A stretch of DNA of 64,000 nucleotides from assembly GCA_000091205.1 (NCBI GenBank), contig AP006496.2; one strand, given 5' to 3'. Numbering within the stretch: the stretch's first letter is position 1; every line of letters begins with the position of its first letter. The translations under genes were made by a program, and so were the position numbers. The DNA is from Cyanidioschyzon merolae. Taxonomy: Eukaryota. Of the stretch, positions 20,745 to 40,669 are shown in pieces. The notes beneath the pieces were generated by a model. The model saw nothing but the letters and a program-made list of their open reading frames with translations. It made no database searches and was not told the DNA's origin.

Positions 20745-21425
20745 TTTCCAAAGTATGTGAAGTTTTCCGTTGGTATTTGCAAAGTTCTGGGCAGCAGCAG
20801 CAGCAGCAGCAGCAGCAGAATCACGTGCTCACATCCCGATGACCACAAGGAATCGGTCGGCAGTGCTTCCGTCGATGTATCCGGACTCTGCTGACCAGTG
20901 ATGCGCCGCTTTGGATCGTACCGAATGCATGAGACTGCTTTATGCAAATTCTACGCAAAAGATTCATGATTGTACAGATTAGTAGTGGTGCGCCTCTGCG
21001 TTCGGCGAAGGTGCTAGTCACGTCGATGGTGTCATGGTGCAGCAATGGTGCGATCTTTGATCCTATCCATCTCTATATGATAGTATTCAATGATATTCAA
21101 AATGGACCTTCGATCCATTCTACCGTCGCGTTTCCGCGGCGCCTCGTCCATGGGCTTCAACGATGCCGCGCCTGCCTCGGCGATTCGCTCGTACGAGACA
21201 TCTCCGCGAACCCGGTACTTTCTCTATTGAGCTGTGTGTGCCAGACTAGTTCTTAGTGCACTCTTTTTTGCTGTGTATTCATTGTCGTCGGAACCAAGAT
21301 CAGGAATGACCGTGCTGGCTTTCCGAAATTGCTTACCACGCACGCCCTGAGTGCTCGCCCGCGTGGAACAAGCTCGATTTTTTCTGGGGCAAGGCACTCG
21401 TGAGGCCGCTGTTCAGTTGCTTGAG

Positions 21426-23249: not shown

Positions 23250-24279
23250 CACTGGTGACCGTCTCTTGTTGTAAAGGTCGACGCAAAGGCCCCGGAATGC
23301 GATGGTACACAGCTCGTGCATAGATTCTCTGTTTGATAGATCGGTTACACGGACCAAATATCCCAGGTTGAGGCTGAATATTGGCTTTCGGGAGAGCGTC
23401 CATCATGGTGCTAAATCCTACCTCCAAGTTCCATCACTCCTGCTTCCTCTCGTACGTACGAGTCATTTTATACGCTCCATCGTGCACCAAGTGCCTGCCT
23501 TGCTGCACCCGCCGTAGCGTCTATACCGCTGCAGCGGATCCAGCACAGAGACAGAACGGCTTGGTCGTACCACAAGGTTGTCGGCTCGTAGTGTCGTTTA
23601 TCCGACACGGGATCACAGGACATCATCATGCAGGGAGCCTGCAAGCTGTGCATATGGATGTACCGCCTGCTGTAGCGCGAACCGATATACTAGGCGTCCA
23701 CAGCGACCAGGGCGGCGACACGCAGACGCAGCATACCTGGCCCTAGTCCCAGCATAAGCAGCGTTTCAGACGAGTTGCTCAGATCTCACGACAGCACTAG
23801 ACGCTTGGCGCGAACACGAACCACGAGCCCGGTATTCTCGTCCGGCTTACGGGACCTTCCGTCTCTGAGATAATCTTTCGACAATACAGAGACCTTTTCC
23901 CCCTTTTAACGCGTACCGTACGCCTGGAATGAAATTTTTATCGATTGACGAGTTCGTGATTCGTTTCTGTGCTTGCCCGTCTCGTGCGTAGGTGCGTCGC
24001 GCACGCATCGGTCAAGAATCTCGATGGCAACGCTGCGAGATCGCGGCAACAGGCACGCCGTTCCAGCCACGTGGCGCTCTGTCCAGCGACGGAGGCACGT
24101 GCTGTCCGCGATCGCCGCATCCCCGGCAGATACGCGGACACGCCGCCCGCGTCCATCGTCAAATCGACGTCGAAGAAAAGCGCCCTGGACGCACGCACGA
24201 GGGGTTCTCGGATGCCGCGTATCACCCGGCCGGTGGCGCGATGCGTGACGTCGCCTCCGTCGAGCACCGGAAATTGCAA

Positions 24280-24280
<1 letters not shown>

Positions 24281-24311
<31 letters not shown>
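24281..24311. repeat. (CCTG)n tetranucleotide microsatellite, about 7-8 units
   Basis: Read directly: ctgcctgcctgcctgcctgcctgcctgcctg, about 240 bp upstream of the RWP-RK gene ATG. Confidence 0.9.
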
Positions 24312-24551
24312 GCGCTGAGCATCCGATCTCGCCGGTGCAACGCGTCTCTTCGGGGGAGGCGTTTCGTTTGCAGGCTACACTCGTGCTTGTATCTTCTGGA
24401 TGCTCAGTAGATCAAACGTTGAGCTTCTACCCGAGTCAGTGTTCTAAATCAGCTAACGAGATTTTTCCGTTGGGATAGGTGCTTGCGGTTGGCGGTCACG
24501 TTTTCTTATTTCTGTTGGATATCGTGTCGAAGATTGCGGCTTTGGGTTCCG

Positions 24552-26903
24552 ATGAGACGTTTCCCAGGGTCTGCGGGGTTATTTTTAGCGTGGAATGACT
24601 TTGACTCCTCGTTTGGTTCAGGGAACGATGCGGCTTGCGAAAGCGGCTCGGCGGAGGCGCTGCTCCCTCCGCCGGGGCCACCGCTTCGGTTGTCGGGGCT
24701 GCTTGCAGGTACCGGCACCGGTGACCCAGTCATCCAAAAGCGGCGACTGGGGGAGCGGCGGCCGCCCAAGCCCGGCGGAAGCAGCGAGCGGAGAAGCTAC
24801 GGGGCGGTCGTGGATCCGCAGTGGGCCATCGCTGCGTGCTCACATTCGCACACTGCGGAAACTGCGAGCTGTAGCACGACGTATCCGCTACACGACGGGC
24901 GCTATGTGCCCTCATCGGGTGCTGGCCTGCGAGGATCAACGATGCCAACAACGAAGGATAGATCCAATTGTTTGCATGCGATGCGGCAGTCGCGCTCCAC
25001 CGATTCGATGGAGCGCGCTTTTGTTGGATTCCATTCCGACAGACGGCAAGATGACCTGGCTCCCGTGGACGAAGCAGTCCTATCTCAAGCTTCAACCGAG
25101 AGACTTGAAGGCATCGCTGGGAAACGGAACTCGAATATGCCCGATCTCTCGCTCTGTTCGCACTCTGAAACGGCACCCGGCATCGACGCGGCGCCCGGGT
25201 ACATCAGCACCGACGAGATACCAGAGCGCCATGGCCCTGTACTGCATCGTTGCATTTGGGTTGAAGCGGTCCTCCACGGAGACTGCCCTGCGGAGATTGC
25301 ACAACACTCAATGCTGGAGATTCGGGCGAAAAACGGTACCCAGTGGCAGAGCATCTGTCCTGATCTTGATCACGACCTCGAAGGCAGCCCAGCACATGAA
25401 TGGCACACGACGCTGGCCCCAGATCGGAATACGCACCTGCGGCATACCGCCTCGCAACCAGTTCACCAAGATGCTCCGGATGCGTCATTTGCCAGGGTGA
25501 CGATTTTCGGCAGCGACGCACCAGCATCGCCACCGCTGAGACAGACGGCGGCGGTGGCGCTGACCGCACGACACAGTCGCCCAAAGCAGCCTCGCGCTGC
25601 AGAGAGCCGGCTCCACGTACTCCGTATACCCTGCGGATGCCGCCTGGCATCAAACGGCGTCTGCGAACTGGAGATCTACCTGCATATGCGCATCAAGGTG
25701 GCATCAGAGACGCGTTTCGGCTGCACGCTGTTCGCTTTCGATCAACAACGGACGCCCCTGGCAAGCCCTCACTTTGTGTATGTCACCATTTCTGGGGGAA
25801 ACGTTACAGACCGGAACAACCCAATCGGTCGTCTGCAGGTAACCTGTGAGCGCGCCAGCAACTGGAGCAGAGAGCGGATGCGTGGAATCCCCGAAGCATC
25901 CTGGCAGCGCGCAACCTGGTTGCTTCCGACATCACTTCACGATCCAGTCACCGCGGGGCTCTCGCAGGCGCCCAATGAAACGGAGCTCGCCGCACCGCTC
26001 GACATGTTCGATGTCTTCTGGAGACCTGCGGCGAACTGCGCTCTCGCAGGGTCTCCATCTCGAGCCTCTTCGCAGCCTTGCCCGAGGAGCGTCAAACACG
26101 CTCCCGATGCTCCGGTACACCCGCGCAGGGCATCCGGTGTGAACGCTGCCGCTCTCGGTATCGAGAGCGATGCTCCATTCCAGAGTTGCTGTGCGCTGGA
26201 GGGCGCCAGCGCCCGCGCAGCAGCCTCTCGAGTGAGTCCAGTTACAGACGCCTGGTCCAGCGTTGAACAAGCAGAAACGTATGCACTGTGGTCTTTTTCG
26301 CTGGACTCTTTCGAGCCAGTTGCCGCTGTGGAACCGAGGTCTTCGCTAGCGACAGAGCAGCTTGTCGCTGAACGTGAATGCTGCCCCCTGGAAAAGCCAG
26401 ATTTCCCGGGCGTAGGGGTTGCATGCAAGCCACCATCAGCCACTAGTCCGCACTCGTCGGCGAGCGGAACGCCCGGACACGCTTCCAGCGATTCACATGG
26501 CATTGATTCGCAGCCTGCAGTGGACCCGGACACAGCGCAGGCTTTTGCCCGGGTTCGTGAACGAATTCGTGGCAAATCGAAACGTTTCACGCTCTACGCA
26601 ATCACGCTCTCCGACTTGCGCTCTTTCTTTCATTTGCCCCGTGACGTGGTGGCTAGGCATCTTGGAATCTGCGTGACGCTCCTCAAAAAGATTGCTCGTC
26701 GCAACGGTATTGCACACTGGCCGTATCGTCGCCTCAAAACGCTTCGGAGCAAAATCGCGGCGCTTGAGGTTGAGCTTCAGCTCCCAAGTGTTGTTGATCG
26801 AAACGGTCGCGCACTTTGCCGTCAACTCCAGCAGCTGCGCCAGCGAATGCAGCAGATTCAGGGTAATGGTGCGGTCTCCGATGACGCGCTACCAGCATCC
26901 TAG
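24552..26903 (+). CDS. RWP-RK domain transcription factor (NIN-like / MID-like family)
   Basis: The C-terminal segment KSKRFTLYAITLSDLRSFFHLPRDVVARHLGICVTLLKKIARRNGIAHWPYRRLKTLRSKIAALEVELQ carries the diagnostic RWP(Y)RK motif and the flanking helix. The rest is P/S/A-rich low complexity typical of transcription-factor activation regions. Track ORF starts at TTG 24483. First in-frame ATG at 24552. Confidence 0.6.
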   Translation: MRRFPGSAGLFLAWNDFDSSFGSGNDAACESGSAEALLPPPGPPLRLSGLLAGTGTGDPVIQKRRLGERRPPKPGGSSERRSYGAVVDPQWAIAACSHSHTAETASCSTTYPLHDGRYVPSSGAGLRGSTMPTTKDRSNCLHAMRQSRSTDSMERAFVGFHSDRRQDDLAPVDEAVLSQASTERLEGIAGKRNSNMPDLSLCSHSETAPGIDAAPGYISTDEIPERHGPVLHRCIWVEAVLHGDCPAEIAQHSMLEIRAKNGTQWQSICPDLDHDLEGSPAHEWHTTLAPDRNTHLRHTASQPVHQDAPDASFARVTIFGSDAPASPPLRQTAAVALTARHSRPKQPRAAESRLHVLRIPCGCRLASNGVCELEIYLHMRIKVASETRFGCTLFAFDQQRTPLASPHFVYVTISGGNVTDRNNPIGRLQVTCERASNWSRERMRGIPEASWQRATWLLPTSLHDPVTAGLSQAPNETELAAPLDMFDVFWRPAANCALAGSPSRASSQPCPRSVKHAPDAPVHPRRASGVNAAALGIESDAPFQSCCALEGASARAAASRVSPVTDAWSSVEQAETYALWSFSLDSFEPVAAVEPRSSLATEQLVAERECCPLEKPDFPGVGVACKPPSATSPHSSASGTPGHASSDSHGIDSQPAVDPDTAQAFARVRERIRGKSKRFTLYAITLSDLRSFFHLPRDVVARHLGICVTLLKKIARRNGIAHWPYRRLKTLRSKIAALEVELQLPSVVDRNGRALCRQLQQLRQRMQQIQGNGAVSDDALPAS

Positions 26904-27582
26904 ACACGCGAGATAGCGTATGAGGCAGCGCAGCAGAGGCGGCAGCTCCTTGACAGCGATGCTCTCAACTATTGATAAGGAGGCAGCATGTGCCATTCGC
27001 AGAACTCGTTATCTTTGGTAGCGTACGAACAAGTCGCTCTGATTCCTGTTCGACTCGCTTTACGCGAAGGTGCACATTCTTGTGCATAGATCGGCAACGG
27101 AAGCGATGGTACGCTGGGACCTGGAAATAGGCACCAGCGGACGGGGAGCAGGACTAGTGCAGCTTCCAAGGAGCACCCGCCGCCGCTGGCGAGTTTCCTG
27201 GTACCGCAATAGCAGCGGCCGCTGCTTCGCTCGCGGATTCTCGCGGGTTACTGCCAGCCACAGCCGTTCAACGCTGCTCGACAAGCGCTTTGGCGTTGTG
27301 GTCAGTCCGAAGCAGACGATGCCCAGATTGTAACTGCATAGCGCCAAAATAATGCCAACGCGATACCACAACGCTCGGCGGTATCGCTATCATCTGGAAC
27401 CTGGCCAGCGTGCGTTGCAGCAAAGTAAAGGTCTCGGCATCGAGCGGCACTGGACGGCTCATTTCCGAACAAGTATCGCTTGCCAGGGGAGCACGCTTTC
27501 CGTAAGTATTGCCTGGGTAGCTTCGCGTACTAGCGTCCAGTGCCGGTACGTATCATTTCCTAGCAAGCCTGATCGCGCTCTC

Positions 27583-28608
27583 CTAAACCTGAGCGGCAGC
27601 CATTCGCTCGCATTCCTCCAGATACTGAGCAAGTGACCAATCCACATCGACTGGTTCAATGTTATGATACCAGACCGCACCAGAAGCTTGAGATTGCGTT
27701 CCTGCGGAAATCCGGAAACAGCTCCGACCGCCTGGGTACCATACAAACCTTTGCGCTTGTATTCCTGGGACATTTTTCGCGAGATACTCCTGCAACGCGG
27801 CTACTGGACCATACACCTGGAGCTGACCTCTCTCACCACGCTCCACGTGCAGTGTCTGCACCGACTCGCAATAGAGTTCCAGGTCGCGATCATCGGGAAC
27901 GTGTGCGCTTCTCGCGGGTCCGTTCACGAGGTGTACACGCCTCTGCTGATCTAAGAGCGTGCAACCTGCGTTCGAGATCTTCCATATGCGATGGTACGAA
28001 CGTGGCTGGCCAATAGCAGTGTTCAACAAAGCGCGAATACTCTGTTGATGCGCGATCACGACCCAGTGGTTTGCGGGCGACACTGCGGATACGCTTGCCG
28101 AGTCTCGAGTTTCCCAGAACTTTTGGGCCCTTGCATAGAGCTCCGCAAAATGTGGACAGTTCTCGGGCTCCTTGCGATGAATACGATACGCTTCAGCGTA
28201 TTTGTCGTCAATGTCGCCCCGCTGTTGACCCTGCCAGGGCACGGAAACCTCCCAGAGCAGTTCGGTGTCCCAACGTACCCAGTTCCTCCGTTTCGCTGCA
28301 AACGTGTCGAAGTACTTGGCAGTTTCCTGTGCTCGACTGAGCGTTGACACCGCCAGGGTGTGAATTCTCTCCGCAGCACTCGCGGTAACCCACTTGGCCG
28401 TCTGTGCCGCCTGCTCGTGCCCAGTGCTCGTCAGGCGTGGTTCGTTGCTCTGACCCTGGGCCCGACCACTTCGGTTCCAGTCAGTTTCACCGTGTCGAAT
28501 GAGAAGTGTTGCACCGGATAGCACAAGAATGAACATGAAGCACTGGCAAGGAACGCTCCGAGTCCACGCGTGTATCGCGGTAATCGCAGCTCGCTCGCCC
28601 ACGAGCAT
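27583..28608 (-). CDS. Histidine phosphatase superfamily protein (phosphoglycerate mutase-like branch)
   Basis: True ATG at 28606-28608. RHG catalytic motif LLIRHGETDWN, ...LTSTGHEQA, and the downstream block VVIAHQQSIRALL. The N-terminal hydrophobic stretch (MFILVLSGATLL) may be a signal peptide. Confidence 0.65.
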   Translation of the reverse strand: MLVGERAAITAIHAWTRSVPCQCFMFILVLSGATLLIRHGETDWNRSGRAQGQSNEPRLTSTGHEQAAQTAKWVTASAAERIHTLAVSTLSRAQETAKYFDTFAAKRRNWVRWDTELLWEVSVPWQGQQRGDIDDKYAEAYRIHRKEPENCPHFAELYARAQKFWETRDSASVSAVSPANHWVVIAHQQSIRALLNTAIGQPRSYHRIWKISNAGCTLLDQQRRVHLVNGPARSAHVPDDRDLELYCESVQTLHVERGERGQLQVYGPVAALQEYLAKNVPGIQAQRFVWYPGGRSCFRISAGTQSQASGAVWYHNIEPVDVDWSLAQYLEECERMAAAQV

Positions 28609-29512
28609 ATGGTCGCTTCAGCGATGGTCGAGCGGTAGCAGCTGAAGCCTGCGTTGCATCCTGCACCTGTAGTGTCGAACGAACGAACGAACGATTATTC
28701 GATAGTTTAAATATGGATCCGGTGTTGTGGAATCTCACGGTATGTCTTGAGCAGCTGGCTTGTCTGGTGTGTATCTCGGACGGGCGTACGCGACTATACT
28801 CTATGGGGAATACAAACGTTTCACGGTAAGCTGAGGTCATTTGCCAGCTCACCGGAGACGTTCGCGCACCTTCGCATGCGCTTGTTTTACCTTCTGATCT
28901 TATACGATAAAAACGAGGACTGCAGAGGGTATCTCTAAACGGGGCCTCGTTCAGAGCGCTCCGCAACGCCCTGGGGTGCAAGGGAGCGCCCATGAAGGAA
29001 TCGTCTCAAAGCTGCATCGACGCTCCACTGCCGTATCTCCTGAGCAGAGCGCTCTCCCAGAGAGAGATACTCAGTATACGCAAATGGGTCTGTCTGAATT
29101 CTCAGAGCACAACTTGGACGTGCCGTTCCTCTACCGCGTTCAACAAAGCTCGTAAGCCGTGTGCGCACTTGCCACTCTGAGGTGTCGGCGAACATTCGCA
29201 TCCGTCGCTCACCCGGCAGTCAATCGCCTGTGTGCCTAGGCCGTCTTGGGTCCTGCAAGCCAACAGGCACAGTGGCGTCGCGTCTCACGGCACTGGGACA
29301 CTGAACGCGCTCAAGCGGGCCCGTCGAGGATCACAGCACACACATACACACACACACCGCTACCGCAACGGGGTTGTGTTGACGCTCGCCTGCTCTCGAC
29401 GGAAGCGTCTGCACACACAGAGAACGCCTTCACGACCTTCCTGAATACGGTCGCTTTACAGAACGCAAGCAGGCGGGGCACACGTTTCCCAGCGCTTGAC
29501 CAGCGCCCAGTA

Positions 29513-32500
29513 TCAACGATGCTCCTGTCCACAGCTTGCGTCGCTCGCGTAGCCGTCGAGAACACCTCGATACGTGCTCGTTTCAAAACGGAACATGCCA
29601 TAAGCGGAGCCCTGTTGTTGTAGCGTTTGCAGAGATGTCTCCAGCGGCACCGAACTCGCGTGAACCGCTGAACGTGCCCACTGTGCGCTGGGGTCGTGCT
29701 GTACCGGCCTTCCCGCGGCGTCTTTCGGATGTATGGTCGAGCACATGTTTCGTCCCTGAAACATTTGACCTGCAGCTTGCTTCTGCTCAGTGATTCCGTT
29801 CGATGCAATGCGACCGATCGACGGCAGACGAGGAATACCTGCTTTCGAAGCAGGGCAGTCTCGCCGCTTATGGCCGATTTTGCCGCAAGCAAAACAAGTG
29901 ATCCTCGCGGAACGATGTGATACACCGGCAACGACTCCCTCCGGAGCGCTTTTTTCGATGATACTGGTGCCCGCGGGCGCAGCCGCTTGTTCTGTCGCAG
30001 ACTCGCGACCCGAGTGCTTATCAGCACCGTTCCTGTCGGGAAGCGCGGCATGCTGTTGCATTGCTGCACGTTCTTCCGACGACGACGACGACGACGCGAC
30101 GTTTCCCTCGGAGCGCTGCGTCCTTTTCGCGTCCGTGGTGTCGTCCTGGGGAAACGCTCGTTTCCGCCGCGGAATATACGGCACAGCGGATACATCCACC
30201 AGCATAGCGGATGTCACCGATGCAGAAGCCGGCACCTGCTGACCCCCTGCTGCTGGTGTCTCGCGATTCATGTCGTCGTCGCCGTCGTCCCAGGCGGTGA
30301 GGAGAAGCTTGGCGGCGGCGTCGACGGCCGCCCCGGTATCCTCTTCCGCTGAAACTGATCGTCGACGAGGCCCTAGGGCTTTTCTGATCCCCGCAATCTG
30401 CTCGGTAATGTGTTGCAACGAGGCAGCACGGCGATGCTCAACCGCCTCCATCGCCTGTTGTTCGTCGAGCGCGCTGGCGAAGGGTCCCCCGCTGATCCAA
30501 CCGCTGCACGAGGCTGCTTGACAGAGGCATCGAATCGGAACAGAAGCGTCGCTCTCATTAAGATCCAGGTCGCGACGCGGTGATACCCGCTGCAACAGCG
30601 ACGTCTCCTCGGCGGCAGCAGCAGCAGCAGCGCGTCTCTCCATTCGGTAGTCGAAGGTGAGCTCCTCGCCAGCCGCGATATCACGACTGGCAAAGATACC
30701 GACGCGAACTTTGCCAAGCACGAGCCATTTCTGCGTGTGGCAGTTCGGCTCGCACGAGTGGTTCAGAAACCGACCCCAGGTTCCTTTGCGACTTGCATCG
30801 AGAAACGTGCTCTGGTCAAGCGTCATGAAATAGACATGTCGTTCGAGGGCGTGATCGCGCTTCCGGCGAGCAAGTTCCGTCGGGCCAATCACTTCACCCA
30901 TGTACTCCACGATAAAGTCACCTTTCTTGAGCGGCGCTCGGCTGCGGATACCACAACCACGGCCGTTTGGACTGAAGAAGAGCTCCACGGGAGCATAGGC
31001 TTGTCGCTGGAATCGCATGTTGCCACATTGCGGATCCGTACTGCTCCGCGACCGAGCAACTGGGCATGTCGCCGGATTGCATTCCACGCACACAGTGCTG
31101 TTCAGGCAGACTCCGGGTACGCATGCTCCAATGCACTGACACACATCGGCATGTGCTGGTGCAACGGACGGTGGAACCAGATACTCGTTCGCCGTTAAAT
31201 GGATAAACGGTGACGGTTTCCCGTCATCCGTATCCAGCATCCGCTGCTTCCTGTCCTCGAGAATGGCCAGTCGGTAGGAGAGCAGCGTATACCAGCTACG
31301 CTCGCCAAAGTCTCCAGCGGACAAACGGGACCAGTCCCAGTCTGGCAGTCGGAGACAAGTGGAAGGCTCAGCGGCGTCAGGTGCTGTCGACGGCCTTTCC
31401 TGCGACACGTCTACTGCTTCTACACTGGTGTGGAGAGGGTGCAAGCCCGCTGCAACCGACGCCTCCCGTCGCCGATTCTCCAATCCGTGGAGGAGCACCA
31501 TGTAGGCAGCGCGATCGTCGGTATTGGTCAGGCGTCCAGCGACAAGCGGCAGTCGCCGGAGAACCGCCAGTAGTCGATCGAGTCCGCGGCGACTGGAGAA
31601 GCCCAAGGCATTGCAGACTCGTTGCAGAAACAGCTCGGACGATTCGCGCAAACAGGCTACGTGGCAGCTGGCCAGAAAGCGCATCACCGCTGGGAAGAAG
31701 GCATCTCGAACGACGCGCATCGTCTGTTGTGCAAGGGCGTCTTCGGTGAGAGTCTCGTCGCTGGACGAATCCTCGATGTCGTCTTCGCGCAGGCCCTCTG
31801 TCAGCAGTTCCCAGAGACGCCTCAGCAGGTCTGCCCAGGTCGATACTGCACTCGCTTCGCTGAGCGCTCGAAGCAGGAGCTTGGAATCCGCACAACACAG
31901 ACGGGTGAAGGTCTCCAAAAGTTGATGCCTGAGGGTGCTTGCGCCGTAGCGCTCCAGCTGCCGGGCCGAACTGGTGCCCCAGGCCTCCTTGCAGATCTTC
32001 TGGCAGTGCAGAAGCAGCGTGTACCCGCTGTTGGGCAACCAACACAGCTCCTGGGCAGCTACAAGATCAGGCCAGATGCGCACCATCGCCCAGAGCGCCG
32101 GATCGACCTCATCAGTCTCACCTCGGAGTCGTTCTTGATCGCTGCGGCTCAGCGAGTCAAGTAATCTCTCCACTGAGTAGAGACGGAAGAAGTGTTGCGC
32201 AATCCGCAGATCCGAGACCACAACCGAAAGCGCCGCCAGGTCGGAGTCGGTCATGAGCATCCAGCCACCCAGCAATAGCCGCAGATGCTCGTCGAGTTCC
32301 TCCGCGAGTCGCTCTCCCATGACGCTTTTCGGACTCGTGGAGGACTCCTGCTGGAGCAGGTCAACCCAATCGAGTACGGTCACGAGATGCTTTTGCATGA
32401 ACGCAGGCGACGGGAGGAGCGCCTCCAGAACGCCACGAGCCAGGGAAGCGTTCCGCTCTTGCCCAGAGGTCGCAGGTGGAAGCGCTCGTTGCTCCTTCGC

Positions 32501-33577
32501 CAGGTCACGGATTGCAGTATCGAGAAGATTTGATGCAGTAATGAACAAATTCAAAGCGATGAAAGAGGGATCGCCCAGGGTCTGCGGTACTTTCAGATGC
32601 TCCGCAGCGCCACTGGATGCATCGGTTACCAGCCTCGACGATTTCTCTGGGCTCGTCATCCGTTCCTCTTGCGGTGCGCGTGCGGCTTTTCGGGCAGCAC
32701 CAACCAAGTCATGCAAGCGCTCGCAGATGTATGCCTGCAGCGTCGGAAGCAGTTCGCCGCGCCTCTGCAGGCAGGCAAGCAAGTGCTTTGTCTCTGGGTG
32801 CTCGCCATCACAGAGAAAAGTGACTGTCGAGAGCAGCTCTGCGAATACAGCTTCTGGCAATGCGGGCTGTTGCACAGTTACCCCAGCGGACGGCAATGAT
32901 ATCGCGTTGAGGCGCTGTGAGCGCTGCGCCCGACACTCGTGGACAATGAGTTCCAGCAAGTCAACGCGGTCGAGACACGGTGATACTTGAAAGCAGACCG
33001 CATCTGTTGTCAAGTCGATCTTCAGCAGTGAGGCATAGAGCGTGAAGTCATTGAGCGCGAACAACTCCACTAGTTTTTTTGCAGCTTCTTGCCAGTCCGA
33101 GCGCTGCAGCAGCACCTCGTCGAGGCTTTGGGTATTCGGTGCGAGCACGGGGACGCTTTCAGCGTTAGGGCCAGGAGAGCGCCTCTGGGACAAAAGTTCA
33201 GCTGCAAAACAAGGACGTGTCGGTTGCTGTGGCGAACTCGACACCGAGCCCGTACACTCTGGAGCGTGACCATTGGTTACCGAAACCGTGCCGTTTTTGC
33301 ACCCTAGGGTTTCAGTCTTTTTCCGTTCGTCCGCGATAGCTGTGGGAAACTCCTGGGAACCACAGCGCAAGTGAACGTTACGAAGCGGATAACTTGCTTC
33401 TTTCCCAAAAAGCCGCAGCTTAATCCAGATCTCACCGTCACGTTCTCGAATGGATTGGACGGTGCCGCTCTCCCAGAGTCCTTCTGCGGTGCGTACCTCG
33501 ACGCAGCGACCTCGCTTCAGCCAAACTGGAAGCGCTACGGCAGCGTCAGTCGGGGTTGACGTTTTGCGCCCCAGCAT
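29513..33577 (-). CDS. SET-domain histone-lysine N-methyltransferase (SET2/NSD/ASH1-like: AWS-SET-postSET) with N-terminal Tudor/chromo-barrel-like domain and C-terminal CCHC zinc knuckle
   Basis: About 1355 aa. SET core GRGCGIRSRAPLKKGDFIVEYMGEVI...RFLNHSCEPNCHTQKW...ELTFDY. Preceding AWS Cys cluster (CQCIGACVPGVCLNSTVCVECNPATC). Post-SET RCLCQAASCSGW. N-terminal PVWLKRGRCVEVRTAEGLWESGTVQSIRERDGEIWIKLRLFGKEASYPLRNVHL resembles a Tudor-knot/chromo-barrel. CFACGKIGHKRRDCP is a CCHC knuckle. Track ORF starts at GTG 33622. First in-frame ATG at 33577. Confidence 0.75.
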   Translation of the reverse strand: MLGRKTSTPTDAAVALPVWLKRGRCVEVRTAEGLWESGTVQSIRERDGEIWIKLRLFGKEASYPLRNVHLRCGSQEFPTAIADERKKTETLGCKNGTVSVTNGHAPECTGSVSSSPQQPTRPCFAAELLSQRRSPGPNAESVPVLAPNTQSLDEVLLQRSDWQEAAKKLVELFALNDFTLYASLLKIDLTTDAVCFQVSPCLDRVDLLELIVHECRAQRSQRLNAISLPSAGVTVQQPALPEAVFAELLSTVTFLCDGEHPETKHLLACLQRRGELLPTLQAYICERLHDLVGAARKAARAPQEERMTSPEKSSRLVTDASSGAAEHLKVPQTLGDPSFIALNLFITASNLLDTAIRDLAKEQRALPPATSGQERNASLARGVLEALLPSPAFMQKHLVTVLDWVDLLQQESSTSPKSVMGERLAEELDEHLRLLLGGWMLMTDSDLAALSVVVSDLRIAQHFFRLYSVERLLDSLSRSDQERLRGETDEVDPALWAMVRIWPDLVAAQELCWLPNSGYTLLLHCQKICKEAWGTSSARQLERYGASTLRHQLLETFTRLCCADSKLLLRALSEASAVSTWADLLRRLWELLTEGLREDDIEDSSSDETLTEDALAQQTMRVVRDAFFPAVMRFLASCHVACLRESSELFLQRVCNALGFSSRRGLDRLLAVLRRLPLVAGRLTNTDDRAAYMVLLHGLENRRREASVAAGLHPLHTSVEAVDVSQERPSTAPDAAEPSTCLRLPDWDWSRLSAGDFGERSWYTLLSYRLAILEDRKQRMLDTDDGKPSPFIHLTANEYLVPPSVAPAHADVCQCIGACVPGVCLNSTVCVECNPATCPVARSRSSTDPQCGNMRFQRQAYAPVELFFSPNGRGCGIRSRAPLKKGDFIVEYMGEVIGPTELARRKRDHALERHVYFMTLDQSTFLDASRKGTWGRFLNHSCEPNCHTQKWLVLGKVRVGIFASRDIAAGEELTFDYRMERRAAAAAAAEETSLLQRVSPRRDLDLNESDASVPIRCLCQAASCSGWISGGPFASALDEQQAMEAVEHRRAASLQHITEQIAGIRKALGPRRRSVSAEEDTGAAVDAAAKLLLTAWDDGDDDMNRETPAAGGQQVPASASVTSAMLVDVSAVPYIPRRKRAFPQDDTTDAKRTQRSEGNVASSSSSSEERAAMQQHAALPDRNGADKHSGRESATEQAAAPAGTSIIEKSAPEGVVAGVSHRSARITCFACGKIGHKRRDCPASKAGIPRLPSIGRIASNGITEQKQAAGQMFQGRNMCSTIHPKDAAGRPVQHDPSAQWARSAVHASSVPLETSLQTLQQQGSAYGMFRFETSTYRGVLDGYASDASCGQEHR

Positions 33578-33934
33578 CAGGTGGGCCCGCGAGCATGAAG
33601 CAACCCACGAATACGTATACACAAACCGCTACTCTGGAGAGCGTCTCGTTAATCAGGACGCTGCAAAGGCACCCCAGGGATCTGCCGAGTCGATGTTCGA
33701 AAAGCCAAGGATAGAGTGGATTCCTGCGAGGCCGACGTACGCCTCAGCGTGTCGGGGCGTGGCGGAGCATAGCCACGTTTGGCGCCACTACCATGGAATG
33801 AAGCCAAAATCCAGCTCCTCCATGTGTCTCAGATTCGAGGAGATCATTGAACTGTTCGTTCTGTTTCCGATTTTGTATTTTTCAGCTCTTGTTTTAGTTG
33901 TACAGCCTTGACATTCAAAGCGTGGCGATGAGAG

Positions 33935-35130: not shown

Positions 35131-37046
35131 CGCGCTGAACCCGGCAAATGTTCCTGCAGCAGCGCTCCGCGCGGAATCGATACACAGCCGCACGCCATTC
35201 GCCTGCTACTGCGCCTAACCTTCGACCAGAGCAGTGTGTCTATTGTTCGCATGCGAATCACTGCTCGCAGACGGAGAACCTGGTGCAGCATCCCGACTGG
35301 AATCGACGGTCGGACTGCGCGGTGCTGAACCTGCGGGTACAATTTTGTCCGTACATACAGTCCATGGACAAAGCGCGTGTCGTGGAGCGTGCGAGCGCCT
35401 TGACGCCGTCGCGCGCTGGCGAATCAACGTATCCGTTCGTAGGGCTCGGTTGGCCCAGTTCGAGAGTGTTCACTACACGAGGCGAATCGCAGTCTCGGAC
35501 CAGTCGCTGCGTTCGCCAACGCTCGGCCTGGGAATCCGCAGCGACACTGCGACGCCATGCTGTCGCTGGAACGGAGGATCGTGTGGGCGGACCACTATCC
35601 CCGAATCAATGCTTGGATAACGGTAAAGAGGACTGGGAGGATTTGGTGCGCCATGTAGGCTTGCTTCCCGGATGCCGATAACCATCACATCATTGGGGAT
35701 CAGAGGTTAGATTCCAAAATCCTACACCATTAGGAATCACACTCGCGGTCCTGAGCACTTGGTAACCATCCGACACTCGGGGATTCCTCGTTAGATTCAA
35801 CAATGCTCTACCATGACGTCTTCCTATTGCTGGGTTCCGCCTGCGTTCGCCCGGGCGCCTCGCCGTGCTCCAGATGATCGATCATGGCGGAGCGTGCCAG
35901 CTGGAATCATCGCGAGGTATCGTGCCAGGCCCCAATATTACCTTGTGTGTCAAAGGCGGCACCGCGACGCGCACCAGCGACAGAGCCTGCAGCAAGAGAT
36001 TACTCTACGTGAGCTTCCGAGCTACGACACCTGATTTTCGCTGCAGTGCGATGCGAACACGCACGTGCGAGTGCGGGGTGTCGGACACGTGTCCTTCATC
36101 GATCGGTGAGGCGTCTCGCGCGGTGCACGCAGTGCGCTAAGTGAGCGTTCCTGGGAGATCAGGCAGGCATAAGACACGACGCGCGTGCCGCCGCTGAAGG
36201 GAAACGCGATCCTGATCTCTGGTGTGTTGTTCAGCTGTAAAAGTTGTATTCGCGCTGGAGTCGAACAAAAATATAGTTTTCAGTTCGTTTTTGTTTCAAA
36301 CTTCAAACAAGTCTAGTCAAATGTTTTTTCGCAGTATATAACAGAAGGGTTTAAAGAGCGTTCAAGAAATATAAAAATAAAAAAACGGAAAAAGGAACGC
36401 TATGAAAAAGCAAATGCACGATCCTGGAGGCCCAGGTTCGCCGGCTGCCAGAAAAAAATAGTGCCGAGTCCAGAAGAAAAGGAAGAGAAGAAGGACCGAA
36501 AGGCGGAGGTCCTACGTCGAAGGCGGCAAGAAAGACGACTGTACGACGAGATGGTGGTGAAAACCTTTCTTCTTGGACATATCAAGGATCCGTACAGGGA
36601 AAAGTTGCGAGACGCTATCGAAAAACGTGTTGCGTCATACTCCAAGAATATTATAAAGGCGTCGTCAGGACTGATGCATTTAGCAAGGGAGATGTACGAA
36701 GACGTCGCGAACATGGAAACGGTCGAGATTCCAGACGAGTTTTTCGACAAACCTTTATTCGTCAGCTGATGCTTGGCACAGGGGAAGTGCGGAGGGAAAA
36801 TGAGCGGGTGCGCGCCCTCCACGAAAAATATCCCTTTTACAGCTTCAATGGTACTCGATACAAGGGTGACCGGGGTATTTACGGCTACGGGGCGATGAAG
36901 TACCCCACGAACCTGAAGAACCATTTGACAGAGAACTTCGAACGTTTCATGGTACGCGCCGTGTTTGCGCTGTATCCGGACATCTCTCGCAATGGAAAAT
37001 GGGCGATGATCAACGGCATCACGAGCGATCGCAAGCATGAAGATGA

Positions 37047-38618
37047 GGTCGAATTTGTCGACAAGAAAGCGCCAAACGAGAACACGAATGAAGCTTCTGT
37101 AATCCGTGCGGTTATACAAGAGCATCGTGCGGTACTGGGGCTGGCGTATCCAACAGACAAGATATCAGCGTTGAAAAAGATAAGGAAAGATACTATCGCC
37201 TCATCCTGCGATATTTCGTGTTTCTGGACCGAGAGCTCGAACGCAAGGCAGAAACGAAGCTAAGTGAAGGAAAAAATGAAGAGTGGGAGAGACGGAAGGC
37301 TGCCCTAATGGGGAAGCGCTTCGATGTGGTTCCAGTGTGCAAGATCAAGTCACATTTTGTGACTATCGACTCCGGCGTCCTCTACGGCATCATGAGGGAC
37401 ATCAGTCCGGAGTTCAGTGTCAGCAGGGAGAACTTCACCGGCGAAAACCGGGAGACGTACTTGAAGAACATCTCCAATTTCAAACGTCTGAGAGTGAACA
37501 AGCAAAAGTTGTTCACTGGGATGATCGAAACCGATGGAGTAGCCTTGTGTGTACACTATCGGCGGTTGAAGAAAGATCGGCCAGTTCCGCCCTCGGCTGC
37601 GCCCGTGACGAAGGGTGCAGAAAAGAAAGAGGCGGATCCTGAGACGCAGGAGGTGGAGGATAACGACTTTGTCGTTGAAGTGACGAAGGATGAAGATGAG
37701 AAGGAGGCGGATCCTGCGACACAGAAGGTGCAAGATAACGACCTTGTCGTTGATGCGGCGAAGGATGAAGATGAGAAGGAGGCGGATCCTGAGACGCAGG
37801 AGGTGGAGGATAACGACTTTGTCGTTTGCGCGGACCCTGGGAACACGAATATCATCACCATCGCAGCACCGAAGCGTGCGGAAGATGGTACTGATGGTAA
37901 CGTACGTCAGAAAGACATGCGAGTTTTGAGGATCTCGAGAGCGAGATACTATCGAGAATCGGGAATAATGAATGCGAGGAAGAAAATTGCTACATGGAAT
38001 GCAGGAATGAAGGATCACCTGGAAGCTTTGAGTGAGGTGACTAGCCGAAGAGCGGACTTTCAAGCTTTTCGGAAATTCATGGAAGTTTGCATTGTCCATT
38101 GGGATGCACTGTGGGAGGAGTATACCAAGGCCCGGTGGGCTCGTTTGCGTATGAATTTGTATTGTGGGAAGCAGCGGGGGTTCGCGAATTTATTCAATAA
38201 CTTGAGCGCCTTGAAGGAGGATGAAAATCAGAGGCTCGTCGTAGCATACGGAGCAGGGCGCTGGAAGACCCAAAAAGGGACTACTCCAGCTCCAACGACA
38301 AGAACATACAGGGAGTGCGCACGGCGTTTCGTTACGATACCTGTAGATGAGTTCCGAACGTCCTATGCACACCATGAACTGGGTTGTACACTTCAGAGAG
38401 TCGAGATGGAAAAGTGCCAGAGGAGCGCTGAGGAAATAGCAAAGTACGGACCGCTGACGGAGGCGCAAACGGAAAGGAGTGCGAAAGTTCGTGGACTACT
38501 CGCTTTAGTGAGTATAACTCCGGACGGGAAGAAACGTATGGAGTTTGTGAACCGAGATTTTAATGCCGCAATCAATCTACGGAAATGTGCGGTACTGGAC
38601 AAGAGACCTCCAGAGTAG
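37047..38618 (+). CDS. Intact C-terminal about 520-aa portion of the Fanzor/TnpB-like protein containing the split RuvC-like nuclease and zinc-ribbon motifs
   Basis: RuvC-I-like [17 protein letters not shown] (Asp in ADPG, about nt 37824-37845). RuvC-II region [17 protein letters not shown]...TRTYREC lacks the canonical Glu, as reported for Fanzor1 proteins with a relocated glutamate (from memory). RTS zinc-ribbon region [13 protein letters not shown]...EMEKC at about 38355. Ruv[18 protein letters not shown] at about 38550 (TnpB DRDxNAAxNI). Stop at 38616-38618. Confidence 0.7.
37626..37826 (+). repeat. 75-bp (25-aa) tandem repeat x2.7 inside the Fanzor ORF, immediately N-terminal to the RuvC-I motif
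   Basis: Protein repeat [25 protein letters not shown] / [25 protein letters not shown] / [22 protein letters not shown]. The nucleotide unit ggcggatcctgagacgcaggaggtggaggataacgactttgtcgtt... recurs with a 75-nt period. Confidence 0.8.
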
Positions 38619-38750
38619 ACAAGAGAGAACTTTATTGGACAACCTCTCAAAGTCGAACTATATGAGAAAATGTTGGAAGCAGTAGTGGGTGGCCGGTCCA
38701 AAAAGACGGGCAGGCGTCTGCACATCAGTCAGAGACGATTTGTCTAAGGC
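38560..38750 (+). ncRNA. Candidate omega-RNA / right-end region of the Fanzor element (3-prime end of ORF plus about 130-nt conserved tail)
   Basis: By analogy with TnpB/Fanzor systems, the guide-RNA scaffold overlaps the ORF 3-prime end and the transposon right end. This tail (ggacaacctctcaaagtcgaactatatgagaaaatgttggaagcag...ggtggccggtccaaaaagacgggcaggcgtctgcacatcag) is conserved in the second family-1 fragment at 54860-54990, although that copy's coding sequence is destroyed. Confidence 0.3.
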
Positions 38751-38843
38751 GCGTTCGCCGCCATTACTGTACGCCGCCGACGTCGTTCGACTCTCGAAAG
38801 GCGTTTAGTCGTGGCGACAAGTCTGCAGTTCCAGTTGCAAGCA

Positions 38844-39122
38844 ATGGGCAAACGCACACGGAAAGTGGGCATCTGCGGCAAGTACGGTACGAGGTATGGA
38901 GCGTCACTGCGAAAAACCGTGAAGAAGATGGAAATCACCCAGCACGCCAAGTACACGTGTCCGTTTTGCGCGAAGGATGCAGTGAAGCGGAAGGCAGTCG
39001 GCGTATGGGAGTGCAAGCGCTGTCGGAAGCGGATAGCTGGTGGCGCCTGGGTCCTGAACACCACCGCAGCGGCAACAGTGCGCACGACGATTCGTCGTCT
39101 GCGCGAGACCGTGGAGCAGTGA
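38844..39122 (+). CDS. RPL37A: 60S ribosomal protein L37a (eL43)
   Basis: [88 protein letters not shown] matches eL43 almost residue for residue, including the C4 zinc ribbon. ATG at 38844. The track ORF starts at an upstream GTG at 38811. Confidence 0.9.
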
Positions 39123-40669
39123 GGCTGTTCGGAGAAGGACAACGAGCACTGGGTGGCGTCTTGGATGAAAGTCGGCGAGGATGTGTCTAGTTCAAGGCGA
39201 ATGCGGCCTGTGCTGGGAGCACTAGCTAATTCGTATCGCCTACGCGCGGTTCGCTTGGTAATGAACGCCACGAGATAGCAGCGTGAGGTATGCAGCGCGT
39301 TCGACACCCAACGAGAGTGCTCCGAGTGAGCGCGCGCGACCTCTCGAGCTTGTACTGTGGGCACTTGTCGAATTGATATTCGGAGTGGCACGCCGCCACG
39401 CGCATCACTTGGAGATTACTGGTCCTGTGTGGTGATACGTTTCGCATGCCGCTTTGAGTGTAGCGTGCGCCTGTCGAGCGTCCACCGTTCGTAAGGTGTT
39501 GCGCGAGATAAGAGTCCCGCGCATTCCGCCCGCTAGAGCTTGATTATCCGATGATACATGAACGACTAGCTTGTCGAAACGTTAGCGGTAAAGAAGCGAG
39601 TATCTAGCGTACAAGACGCGTGTAGCTTTTCGCTCCTAAACACTGTACGCAGTAAAGAGCGCACGGCTTGGTGTCAGTCTCGAGCGCATGAACGACCACA
39701 GTGTTCTTCGATGGTTTGTGTAAAACTGGGCCCGCCTGAAAGGACAGCGATCTACGACACGATTAGCATCCGCGGACGCCTGGTCAGAGCGATCGGGATG
39801 CCTGTGGAAACGCGTACTTGCCGACGTTTGCAGGCGCTCACGGGCGGCCTCGGTGGCAGGGGCGAAGATCGAGCCCCTGCATCGATGATGCGTCATGCTT
39901 CTCTGCAGACGATTTAGATGCAGTCAAATGGGACTCGGCATCGAAACTGTCGTTACCTGCTGACTAGGTTGCCACAGCACGTAAGCAAACCTGCCGGCAA
40001 CCCCGGTGTGCGCCTTGCCGCGAGTGCTCACTTTTGAATGACTGCTGCGAGCCTGTGTTCGCTACAGGGCGCGACTACCCAGAGTCGCCCGGCACCAGTG
40101 CGTGTGCTCGTGACGACAGCAGCGCTGAACGCAGGTGATTGAGATTTGCTTACCTACCGGCTCGCTGAGCACATCGATTCACTGGACATGCGCGAACGAA
40201 GAGCTTTTCACGTGAAGCTACCATATCTCCCTGAGCGGATATGGCTTTCTGTCTGGACTGTGCAGAGGCAGCGGCGCCAAGTACGTTGCACTCGGATGCT
40301 CGCACGCTGCTGTTGCAACGCTGCAGGCACGCCAGAACTGCCACTACGGAGATACAGCATGCGATGCGCGGTTCTCGATACGTCCGATGATGACGCAGTT
40401 GTAGGTATCGCCCAGAACACGTGGTGGCTTTCCGAGCTCAGTCCATCGTCATGCTCCAGTGCGCATGGATTATCATGCAGCCGGGAGCCATAAAATGGAG
40501 CGCGAGACTGCGATGAACGCTTGCTACAGTGCTGAATGTGTTGCCACTGTCGCCGCACGGAAACAGCGCAAGTCGTCGTGTCGATGCTGGGGCCCACACG
40601 AAAGGCCGGATCGTAATGCGAGCGAGCGCAGCCCCGCGTTAGATGGTTAAACACATGTCAGACTAGAAT

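Follow-up and report, generated by a model that had tools for sequence, protein, structure and literature searches.

Set2/SETD2 (KMT3A), which methylates H3K36 in a transcription-coupled manner, and the NSD1/2/3 and ASH1L enzymes (KMT3B-type, mono- and dimethylating H3K36) are the closest described counterparts of the protein analysed here. Canonical Set2/SETD2 is coupled to the phosphorylated CTD of Pol II by an SRI domain, usually together with a WW domain, and KMT3 enzymes are commonly autoinhibited near the post-SET loop. Zinc knuckles of the form C-x2-C-G-x2-G-H-x4-C, as present in retroviral NC, CNBP, Lin28 and Air1/2, bind single-stranded nucleic acid; the intrinsic affinity of lone knuckles is low, and some serve protein contacts. 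In yeast, both Set1 and Set2 can be UV-cross-linked to nascent RNA, and RRM2 of Set1 promotes chromatin occupancy and H3K4me3 (PMC5492175).

Within the window, i.e. the whole 64-kb stretch of Cyanidioschyzon merolae DNA that was analysed, the Set2-like locus is a single intron-free gene. Its one uninterrupted ORF extends over 29513..33622 (-) when counted from an upstream GTG. From the first ATG at 33577 the ORF list gives a continuous coding ORF of 4062 nt that specifies 1354 aa, with the stop codon at 29513-29515; these limits coincide with the span 29513-33577 proposed in the first-pass annotation. The predicted protein is identical to BAM81383.1 / XP_005537419.1 / UniProt M1VJC2 of C. merolae 10D, whose GenBank label reads "similar to histone methyltransferase Set2p", and metagenome variants that are 99 % identical to it retain the full length. 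In the cyanidiophyte lineage P0005 the locus of the orthologue is syntenic with that of C. merolae (SET - His_Phos_1 - RWP-RK - Ofd1). While the gene is thus already annotated as Set2-like, its extra modules form an unusual, clade-restricted set. Its features are the following.

29513..33577, minus strand: complete coding sequence of the Set2-like SET-domain protein (ORF list; 1354 aa plus stop; identical to BAM81383.1 / M1VJC2; start methionine kept in orthologues)
33353..33532, minus strand: five-stranded beta-barrel (aa 16-75), Tudor/chromo-barrel-like by fold-level resemblance
31433..33097, minus strand: long alpha-helical region (aa 161-715), an ARM/HEAT-like solenoid by structure prediction
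31142..31351, minus strand: conserved pre-AWS segment (aa 743-812), 47-70 % identity across cyanidiophytes; the NSD1/NSD3 PDB alignments start at aa 775-785
31004..31141, minus strand: AWS zinc-cluster module (aa 813-858), diverged and with a loop insertion; Pfam AWS 18.7 bits (aa 818-858) against a cut-off of 23.3; cysteines invariant in orthologues
30632..31003, minus strand: SET catalytic domain (aa 859-982; Pfam SET aa 874-977, 87.7 bits, E 8.3e-25), NHSCEPNC and ELTFDY motifs intact; NSD1 3ooi 4.9e-38; 71-85 % identity in orthologues
30539..30631, minus strand: Ala-rich insertion of about 31 aa at the SET/post-SET junction (aa 983-1013), poorly conserved (10-23 % identity in the orthologue alignment), missing from the NSD1 alignment and short in Galdieria orthologues
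30488..30538, minus strand: post-SET motif IRCLCQAASCSGWISG (aa 1014-1030), CxCx4C at aa 1017; 71-82 % identity in orthologues
30155..30187, minus strand: conserved, NLS-like basic motif VPYIPRRKRAF (aa 1131-1141); IPRRKR invariant in three lineages
29852..29899, minus strand: CCHC zinc knuckle TCFACGKIGHKRRDCP (aa 1227-1242) within a basic stretch; scored at 24.3 bits by Pfam zf-CCHC, above its cut-off of 20.8
29525..29566, minus strand: conserved C-terminal motif VLDGYASDASCGQ (aa 1338-1351), 93-100 % identity in P0002 and Cyanidiococcus and 71 % in P0005, with 5-13 % in the flanking linker

The assignment of the catalytic module to the SET2/NSD type, made from the bare sequence in the first-pass annotation, is upheld by Pfam and by PDB sequence matches, which place it among SET2/NSD/ASH1-type enzymes. 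LNHSCEPNC and EELTFDY align to NSD1 3ooi, and the SAM-binding/catalytic motifs are intact in alignments to PDB sequences. Of its three parts, SET passes Pfam, the post-SET CxCx4C (CLCQAASC) was assigned by pattern and alignment rather than by an HMM and is set apart from SET by the Ala-rich insertion, and the AWS-like module has an extra loop and a score under the Pfam cut-off but retains its cysteine pattern. Orthologues from Galdieria and Compsopogon exceed that cut-off for AWS (33-46 bits). The closest PDB sequences are NSD1, NSD3, SETD2 (1.8e-35) and ASH1L, all in the range of 1e-38 to 1e-34. EZH2 (1e-24), SUV39H2 (4e-22) and MLL/Set1 (about 1e-17 to 1e-18) match less well. With H3K36 enzymes as best matches, the Set2-like protein is most probably the H3K36 methyltransferase of the alga.

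A rather improbable alternative is that the enzyme methylates a histone lysine other than H3K36, or a substrate that is not a histone, e.g. an RNA-binding or ribosomal protein, with the knuckle bringing it to ribonucleoprotein substrates. This would accommodate the subthreshold AWS score, the insertions in the AWS loop and (a long one) between SET and post-SET, as well as the change from GWG to GCG in the SET motif: each of the four knuckle-bearing lineages has RGCGI/V where Galdieria keeps RGWGL. The missing SRI domain and the unsupported position of the clade with respect to the Set2 and NSD groups would fit as well. The wide gap between the H3K36 enzymes and EZH2 or SUV39H2 in the PDB matches argues against it, however, as do the intact SAM/catalytic motifs and post-SET zinc site, the resemblance of the N-terminal barrel to chromatin readers and the NLS-like IPRRKR.

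In the SET tree the four knuckle-bearing sequences form one clade in 60 of 60 bootstraps. A supported grouping of this clade with Set2 or NSD is absent from the same tree (2/60 bootstraps for NSD-labelled sequences). By this tree the class of the protein, SET2/NSD, cannot be narrowed further.

Compared with Set2/SETD2, the C. merolae protein has a common AWS-SET-postSET core with the same motifs. It differs in the location of this core, which is preceded by a helical arm of about 550 aa and so occupies the C-terminal half of the protein, and in the absence of SRI and WW. Set2 proteins bearing SRI/WW are among the SET modules nearest to it. A Pfam search at E<=1 returned none of SRI, WW, PWWP, PHD, C5HCH, bromo or BAH, and when a profile of the C-terminal tail built from four lineages was compared by hhalign with 24 SRI domains, the probability of SRI was 0.3 %. 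NSD1/2/3 and ASH1L provide the best-scoring solved structures, with the NSD1 3ooi alignment reaching into the pre-AWS segment, and like the NSD enzymes the C. merolae protein joins the core to putative reader modules; PWWP, PHD, C5HCH, bromo and BAH of the NSD/ASH1L enzymes are, by contrast, not among them. Orthologues of Galdieria sulphuraria (XP_005705973.1), G. phlegrea and Compsopogon caeruleus (A0A7S1T9B3) share the helical arm, AWS-SET-postSET and [FY]xIP[KR][KR], and they too have no SRI. They differ from the C. merolae protein in having RGWGL rather than RGCGI and neither a CCHC knuckle, a GYASDASCGQ end nor a detectable barrel. Among the Set2-type relatives examined, none combines or carries the Tudor-like barrel and the CCHC knuckle.

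The helical region had been estimated at about 600 aa, and structure prediction agrees, giving helix over about 550-600 aa. The segment aa 161-715 is predicted to be almost wholly alpha-helical at a mean pLDDT of 57, so that its ARM/HEAT-like character is a low-confidence prediction. Such an arm would likely act as a protein-docking scaffold.

Two independent methods rank histone-reader Tudor and chromo-barrel domains highest as matches of the N-terminal barrel, and aa 16-75 form the five-stranded SH3-like beta-barrel that characterizes the fold of the Royal family. The Tudor/chromo-barrel-like domain proposed in the first-pass annotation therefore stands at the level of fold and finds no counterpart at the level of sequence family: no Royal-family Pfam model matched the full protein at E<=1, the isolated barrel retrieved from Pfam only DUF7861 (E 0.03-0.05) and Chromo_MORC2_6th (0.14), and a PDB profile search with the barrel gave no relevant match. 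W35 and F57 are invariant in the orthologue alignment, and Y/F63 is a further conserved aromatic residue. On a hand alignment, W35, F57 and Y/F63 (plus E60) would fall on three of the four positions that make up the cage of PHF1-type Tudor domains, the first position presumably being Thr, Ala or Pro and hence non-aromatic. The last point, the net charge of +4 and the lack of a Royal-family Pfam match would suit an SH3/Sm-like barrel that binds nucleic acid or has some other non-reader role. We regard this as possible though doubtful, given the ranking of histone readers by both methods and the presumed cage residues; it is confined to the barrel and does not conflict with our main interpretation. 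The barrel occurs in three of the four knuckle-bearing lineages and no homologue of it is detectable in the red-algal orthologues (Galdieria, Compsopogon). P0005 has the knuckle without the barrel, which means that the two are not obligately coupled.

CFACGKIGHKRRDC is the sole C-x2-C-x4-H-x4-C pattern in the six frames of the window, and this pattern arises in 15 of 20000 shuffles of the Set2-like protein. As had been claimed, one ORF encodes both SET and this canonical CCHC knuckle, which passes Pfam: zf-CCHC (PF00098, cut-off 20.8) scores 24.3 bits in C. merolae, 24.5 in P0002 and 20.1 in P0005, where the knuckle is marginally below the cut-off yet has every ligand. The search for knuckle-bearing orthologues in related taxa was successful: the orthologues of P0002 and P0005, which are 46 % and 38 % identical to the C. 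merolae protein, respectively, have the knuckle in frame with SET. Cyanidiococcus, the fourth lineage, also has it, frame-shifted by two frame changes that the assembly shows in the tail. All four lineages keep the four ligands as well as the G/GH positions, and the knuckle stands out as a conserved island (45-70 % identity) from linkers of 5-27 %; at its 70 % maximum it contrasts with 5-18 % in the linkers that adjoin it directly. It is thus part of the Set2-like gene and, judged by this conservation, under selection. No resemblance to any Gag/transposon protein flanks it. The architecture is as non-standard as the first-pass annotation had it: outside these lineages, an HMM scan of the 56 SET modules nearest to it detected no zf-CCHC, a true knuckle occurs among the best 150 matches in cyanidiophyte orthologues only (C. 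merolae, P0002, P0005 and Cyanidiococcus), and a literature search found no description of a Set2-type enzyme built in this way.

A knuckle encoded by a separate downstream gene, the objection raised at the outset, is ruled out by the continuous ORF, the GenBank model (which takes in the knuckle), the in-frame orthologues and the conserved island amid diverged linkers. Related to it is the idea that the knuckle-bearing tail is no functional part of the enzyme and either is decaying or is expressed separately, as a downstream product. Its source is Cyanidiococcus, where the gene model ends upstream of the knuckle, and two further frames hold the knuckle and the C-terminal motif. We consider it highly improbable, because the tail is in frame with SET in C. 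merolae, P0002 and P0005, about 325 codons stay open past post-SET (by our estimate, a chance of roughly 1e-5 at this GC content), a conserved internal start codon is absent, and conservation of the knuckle and of the C-terminal motif is 70-100 %, Cyanidiococcus included. Conserved islands in diverged linkers do not fit decay; indels of the assembly, or changes of very recent date, would explain them. If the frame changes of Cyanidiococcus are real, the tail would be dispensable in that organism.

Beyond its spacing, the knuckle matches the consensus of nucleic-acid-binding knuckles in the aromatic residue that follows Cys1, in CG and GH, in the basic residues past His and in the trailing CP, and the net charge around it (aa 1221-1260) is +8. 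Based on these features, zinc coordination and binding of ssRNA or ssDNA are probable. The same features speak against an unlikely alternative, a role as a protein-protein or intramolecular regulatory element that docks the tail on a partner, on the helical arm or on SET. That role would be in keeping with the presence of just one knuckle, as single knuckles generally bind nucleic acid weakly. It could also draw on the expanded insertion between SET and post-SET, the region around which KMT3 enzymes are commonly autoinhibited, and on two more short conserved islands of the tail, IPRRKR and GYASDASCGQ, which are typical of linear docking motifs; on this reading GYASDASCGQ would serve as the second motif for docking. 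IPRRKR has counterparts in P0005 (FIPRKQR) and Galdieria (FQIPKKLRK / FHIPKKKP). The strictly conserved GYASDASCGQ is probably a docking motif in our main interpretation as well.

Taken as a whole, the data lead us to lean towards a KMT3-type, probably H3K36-specific enzyme without SRI that is equipped with a probable nucleic-acid-binding knuckle and a possible reader. The AWS-SET-postSET core would presumably methylate nucleosomal H3K36, as its relatives do. The SRI/WW link of canonical Set2/SETD2 to the Pol II CTD is missing from it; the red-algal orthologues carry a long N-terminal ARM/HEAT-like arm instead. The Cyanidioschyzon/Cyanidiococcus clade appears to have gained a single CNBP/Gag-type CCHC knuckle in a basic, disordered C-terminal tail, together with GYASDASCGQ. 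We propose that the knuckle binds ssRNA, i.e. nascent transcripts, or ssDNA and helps to recruit the enzyme to transcribed chromatin or to keep it there. The barrel, apparently gained in three of these lineages, is a possible reader of a methyl-lysine mark, or else may bind nucleic acid. Set1/COMPASS offers a functional analogy only: it follows the same concept of a histone lysine methyltransferase with a dedicated ssRNA-binding module, but Set1 belongs to another SET subfamily (H3K4) and its module is an RRM, whereas that of the C. merolae protein is a zinc knuckle. The knuckle itself has the exact C-x2-C-x4-H-x4-C spacing of PF00098 members (CNBP/Gis2, Lin28, Air1/2, Gag NC); in these, knuckles are arrayed in tandem on proteins of RNA processing or on Gag, while in C. 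merolae a single copy resides on a chromatin enzyme.

The putative histone methyltransferase is encoded by a single uninterrupted gene. The span 29513-33577 proposed in the first-pass annotation was borne out: the first ATG, at 33577, opens 1354 codons and a stop within a single minus-strand ORF, which runs from a GTG at 33622 to 29513. An in-frame stop lies a short way upstream, and the start methionine is kept in the aligned orthologues. Residue for residue, the product equals BAM81383.1 (XP_005537419.1; UniProt M1VJC2) from strain 10D of Cyanidioschyzon merolae, a database entry annotated as "similar to histone methyltransferase Set2p". The window is thus C. merolae nuclear DNA, and its other ORFs fit this origin. 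Introns occur in just some two dozen genes of this alga; one ORF is therefore expected by default to be one gene. The window (~57 % GC) carries long intron-less ORFs arranged as a compact array, each neighbour being uninterrupted; they encode a Hint-module protein, an oxysterol-binding protein, a SAP+LSM protein, tubulin, Mis12, FancD2, an Ofd1-type 2OG oxygenase, RWP-RK and His_Phos_1 proteins and a BT1 transporter. The order Ofd1-type oxygenase, RWP-RK, His_Phos_1, SET methyltransferase (21351-33577) recurs on L004 (66 % GC), the metagenomic contig carrying the orthologue P0005, where it reads SET - His_Phos_1 - RWP-RK - Ofd1. The visible part of the gene order at the Cyanidiococcus locus L001 also agrees with C. 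merolae, and protein identity across these loci is 38-51 %. An Rfam scan of the whole window gave no match.

We consider it very probable that this one gene combines a KMT3 (SET2/NSD/ASH1-type) core with a zinc knuckle in a basic tail, a Royal-like barrel, a helical arm and two short motifs, and that it has no SRI domain. Region-by-region comparison of orthologues with the window protein gave the following picture.

Modules of the protein encoded at 29513-33577 (minus strand), with identity of orthologues to the window protein
aa 16-75, predicted N-terminal barrel: 68-72 %
aa 161-715, predicted helical arm: 44-48 %; 27 % in P0005
aa 818-858, AWS-like region: 61-76 %
aa 874-977, SET: 71-85 %
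aa 1017, post-SET motif: 71-82 %
aa 1131-1141 (30155-30187, minus strand), basic IPRRKR motif: 36-82 %
aa 1227-1242, CCHC knuckle: 70 %; 45 % in P0005
aa 1338-1351 (29525-29566, minus strand), C-terminal motif: 93-100 % in the metagenomic orthologue P0002 and Cyanidiococcus; 71 % in P0005
Linkers separating the modules: 5-27 %

Such conserved islands amid diverged linkers are what one expects when purifying selection acts on the modules of a single polypeptide.

The KMT3 catalytic core is intact. SET was recognized by Pfam with an E value of 8.3e-25, and the post-SET CxCx4C motif (IRCLCQAASCSGW) is preceded by a poorly conserved Ala-rich insertion of ~31 aa. AWS scored 18.7 bits, below the Pfam cut-off of 23.3, and the alignment revealed an extra loop inside it. 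We nevertheless read it as a diverged but real AWS, because its cysteines are invariant among orthologues and the cut-off is passed in Galdieria and Compsopogon, whose orthologues are more distant. The best sequence matches in the PDB were H3K36 enzymes (NSD1, 4.9e-38; NSD3; SETD2, 1.8e-35; ASH1L, 1.4e-34), with the NHSC and ELTFDY motifs aligned, and other SET classes followed far behind (EZH2, 1e-24; SUV39H2, 4e-22; MLL/Set1, 1e-17 to 1e-18). By its SET and post-SET features, and with a diverged AWS, the protein classifies as a KMT3 superfamily member whose catalysis is most likely like that of Set2/SETD2, NSD and ASH1. Family resemblance suggests H3K36 as the substrate; given this ranking of matches, a substrate other than H3K36 appears distinctly improbable.

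Assignment to a subfamily is another matter. Searches of the window protein at Pfam E<=1 found no SRI, WW, PWWP, PHD, bromo, BAH or CW domain. The protein thereby differs from Set2/SETD2, for which SRI is the defining accessory domain, from NSD (PWWP/PHD/C5HCH) and from ASH1 (bromo/BAH), and because these accessory-domain tests failed we file it under none of the three. A hidden SRI in the tail was considered and rejected, the tail profile reaching 0.3 % probability in hhalign against 24 SRI domains; all red-algal orthologues examined were likewise devoid of SRI. A quick neighbour-joining tree of 84 catalytic modules (60 bootstraps) united the four knuckle-bearing sequences (C. merolae, Cyanidiococcus, P0002 and P0005) in 60/60 replicates, which was the sole supported grouping. 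Deeper nodes, including red-algal monophyly, were unsupported, and affinity to SRI-labelled or NSD-labelled sequences reached at most 2/60; we therefore make no subfamily claim. As a separate observation, the usually invariant RGWGL at the beginning of the SET domain (30960-30980, minus strand; aa ~873-877) reads RGCGI or RGCGV in all four knuckle-bearing lineages and is intact in Galdieria and NSD1. This replacement of Trp by Cys close to the cofactor pocket is specific to the clade.

The C-terminal CCHC knuckle noted at first pass does lie within the SET ORF, scoring 24.3 bits against the Pfam zf-CCHC cut-off of 20.8. Its sequence, CFACGKIGHKRRDC, is the sole C-x2-C-x4-H-x4-C pattern across the six frames of the window, and such a pattern arose in 15 of 20000 shuffles of the window protein. 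That the knuckle belongs to a separate downstream gene is contradicted by the continuity of the ORF, by in-frame knuckles in P0002 (46 % identity, 1336 aa; TCFACGQHGHKQRDCP, above the Pfam cut-off) and P0005 (38 % identity, 1159 aa; HCFHCGRRGHRRAECP), and by its being a conserved island among diverged linkers. The annotated protein of Cyanidiococcus yangmingshanensis (P0003, F1559_000396) is 1172 aa long. Beyond its stop codon (VWRR01000009.1; L001 9519-10015), KLTCFACGRLGHKRRDCPS and the terminal GVLDGYASDASCGQEPR* are encoded, each in a different frame, and two single-base indels would rejoin one ORF. Since the peptides are 70-100 % conserved, these frameshifts probably reflect an assembly error rather than decay. 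The truncated Cyanidiococcus annotation is what a tail without function in the enzyme might look like; with the tail kept in frame in P0002 and P0005, we regard that reading as highly improbable. A Gag (retroelement) origin of the knuckle was also considered, and nothing beyond the 16-18-residue knuckle matched anything.

Two short motifs accompany the knuckle. The basic motif [FY]-I-P-R-R-K-R is kept in all cyanidiophyte orthologues, its counterparts being FQIPKKLRK and FHIPKKKP (Galdieria) and IRIPKRPN (Compsopogon); judged by its sequence it is NLS-like, yet its conservation exceeds what a simple NLS would need. The C-terminal peptide (VL)DGYASDASCGQ is strictly conserved within a linker of 5-13 % identity; the very last residues of P0005 are ...AGYASDASCGQ. 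The peptide has the look of a motif for docking or for modification. Galdieria orthologues are without it and end in PPGFGYE[FY]LRL.

The architecture was called non-standard in the first-pass annotation, and the survey of relatives agrees. When 1.84 billion representative proteins were scanned exhaustively with HMMER, aa 1-1150 being the query, 12854 SET matches came back, among which only two, Cyanidiococcus and P0005, were full-length relatives. Partial matches reaching into the helical arm came from Galdieria sulphuraria, G. phlegrea, Compsopogon caeruleus and one metagenome protein. Pfam recognized SET and AWS as the sole domains of the Galdieria and Compsopogon orthologues, in which neither a knuckle nor a detectable barrel was found. 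Among the 56 nearest relatives of the SET module, an HMM census counted AWS in 53, WW in 10, SRI in 8, PWWP and NSD-PHD in 5 each, HMG in 2, CW in 1 and zf-CCHC in none. Pattern matching in the best 150 matches located true knuckles in cyanidiophyte orthologues only, all remaining hits being NSD-type PHD/C5HCH fingers. Two indexed protein searches were uninformative: the SET module alone retrieved five short fragments, and a concatenated barrel and tail query found nothing at E<=10, missing the known orthologues too. From these comparisons we conclude that the helical arm with a KMT3 core is a red-algal architecture, to which the knuckle and the GYASDASCGQ end were added in the Cyanidioschyzon/Cyanidiococcus-type lineage. 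Two database entries for the G. sulphuraria orthologue deserve mention: XP_005705973.1 (P0007) is named "chondroitin-glucuronate 5-epimerase", apparently an annotation error because Pfam sees only AWS and SET, and GJD06035.1 (P0168) is joined to an upstream gene as a 2124-aa 'ASHH2'.

The proposed Tudor/chromo-barrel-like N-terminus is supported as a predicted fold, with modest scores. AlphaFold2 modelled five β-strands in aa 1-110 (25-29, 35-46, 49-56, 59-64 and 70-72) with a pLDDT of ~85 over aa 15-75 and disordered flanks; the alignments underlying the structure predictions held four sequences. The top Foldseek matches were the 53BP1 Tudor, an Esa1-like Tudor, the MRG2 chromo-barrel, SETDB1, ERCC6L2 and PHF1/PHF19 (~2.1 Å over 56 columns, E 0.015-0.15). 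No sequence model matched the barrel, whether in Pfam searches of the full protein or the isolated barrel or in a PDB profile search. When the barrel was aligned by hand to Tudor domains of the PHF1 type, its conserved residues W35, F57 and Y/F63 fell on three of the four putative cage positions. The remaining one, first in order, is non-aromatic, and a methyl-lysine cage is possible. The barrel may read a methyl mark or bind nucleic acid. Hfq, the UvrD C-terminal domain and SH3, none of them a reader, are also among its fold matches, and next to the aromatic residues of the putative cage a non-reader function seems rather unlikely. The barrel is detectable in just three of the four knuckle-bearing lineages; tblastn and blastp did not find it upstream of P0005 or in the Galdieria and Compsopogon orthologues. 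Homology with a β-rich N-terminal segment of Galdieria, suspected by eye, was not supported (hhalign, 0.2 %).

The long helical region was likewise recovered in the model, at low confidence: for aa 151-790 AlphaFold2 predicted ~25 helices and nearly no strand, with a mean pLDDT of 57 and values of 75-83 in the first ~150 residues only. Its profile matched both Galdieria proteins in two collinear segments (E 3e-10 and 8e-9 per target). We tentatively picture the arm as an α-solenoid that may serve as a docking scaffold.

What might the knuckle do? Canonical Set2/SETD2 reaches transcribed genes via its SRI domain. Gag NC, CNBP, Lin28 and Air1/2 use knuckles of the type C-x2-C-G-x2-G-H-x4-C to bind single-stranded nucleic acid, and the 40 residues around the knuckle of the window protein carry a net charge of +8. 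By analogy, the knuckle would bind single-stranded RNA or DNA and thereby add to recruitment or retention of the enzyme on transcribed chromatin, a tethering role that we hold plausible at somewhat below even chances. The knuckle could instead be a protein-docking or autoregulatory element; against the nucleic-acid precedents for this knuckle type we think it unlikely. In yeast, Set1 and Set2 UV-cross-link to nascent RNA, and RRM2 of Set1 supports chromatin occupancy and H3K4me3 (PMC5492175). Taking nucleic-acid tethering further, it is tempting to speculate that in the Cyanidioschyzon lineage H3K36 methylation is coupled to transcription without SRI-Pol II CTD contact. The knuckle would keep the enzyme on transcribed genes by binding nascent RNA directly, and the barrel would read a methyl mark, either the enzyme's own product or a neighbouring one, so that methylation spreads or is maintained; in this complete form the scheme is a long shot. 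For architecture and mechanism taken together, we lean only slightly towards our explanation.

The gene was annotated in a 2004-era genome, and SET plus zf-CCHC is visible to any domain scan. What appears to be new, on sequence grounds, is that a Set2-like enzyme lacking SRI has gained, within one clade, a knuckle of the nucleic-acid type and a reader-like barrel. A literature search on SET combined with a zinc knuckle, or on Set2 of C. merolae, found nothing relevant, and one on the red-algal Pol II CTD in relation to SRI loss found nothing usable; the accessible portion of a survey of red-algal SET proteins gives no gene-level data (PMC12888271). Chromatin enzymes commonly acquire extra domains in particular lineages, and the surprise to specialists should therefore be mild; a docking knuckle would be one more such case. 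Should the knuckle bind nascent RNA, this would be a natural, hard-wired case of contacts known for yeast Set1 and Set2 only from cross-linking, and the full scheme, if true, would give a free-living eukaryote with one of the smallest genomes a read-write analogue of Set2 that is tethered by RNA. The C. merolae genome is very small and almost devoid of introns, its chromatin genes are few, and gene targeting works efficiently; the appeal of the system lies in its testability in this minimal, genetically tractable eukaryote.

Three neighbouring ORFs have features of their own.

7462-8460, minus strand: 332 aa, N-terminal SAP (Pfam E 1.6e-10) and C-terminal LSM (1.8e-13)
774-2555, minus strand: 593 aa, C-terminal Hint module (E 1e-32)
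37218-38618, plus strand: 466 aa, within the purine-skewed stretch 36000-40000

The first joins a DNA/chromatin-tethering motif to an Sm-like RNA-binding fold, an uncommon-looking pairing. In the second, the Hint module is of the Hedgehog/intein autoprocessing type, and the N-terminal ~370 aa have no Pfam match. The third has neither a Pfam nor a PDB sequence match; its C-terminus may resemble the RuvC-III/zinc-finger end of TnpB/Fanzor-type nucleases. GC skew and AT skew of the surrounding 36000-40000 region are unusual (0.18 each), and three 75-bp tandem repeats within the ORF (37605-37826) encode an acidic 25-aa repeat.
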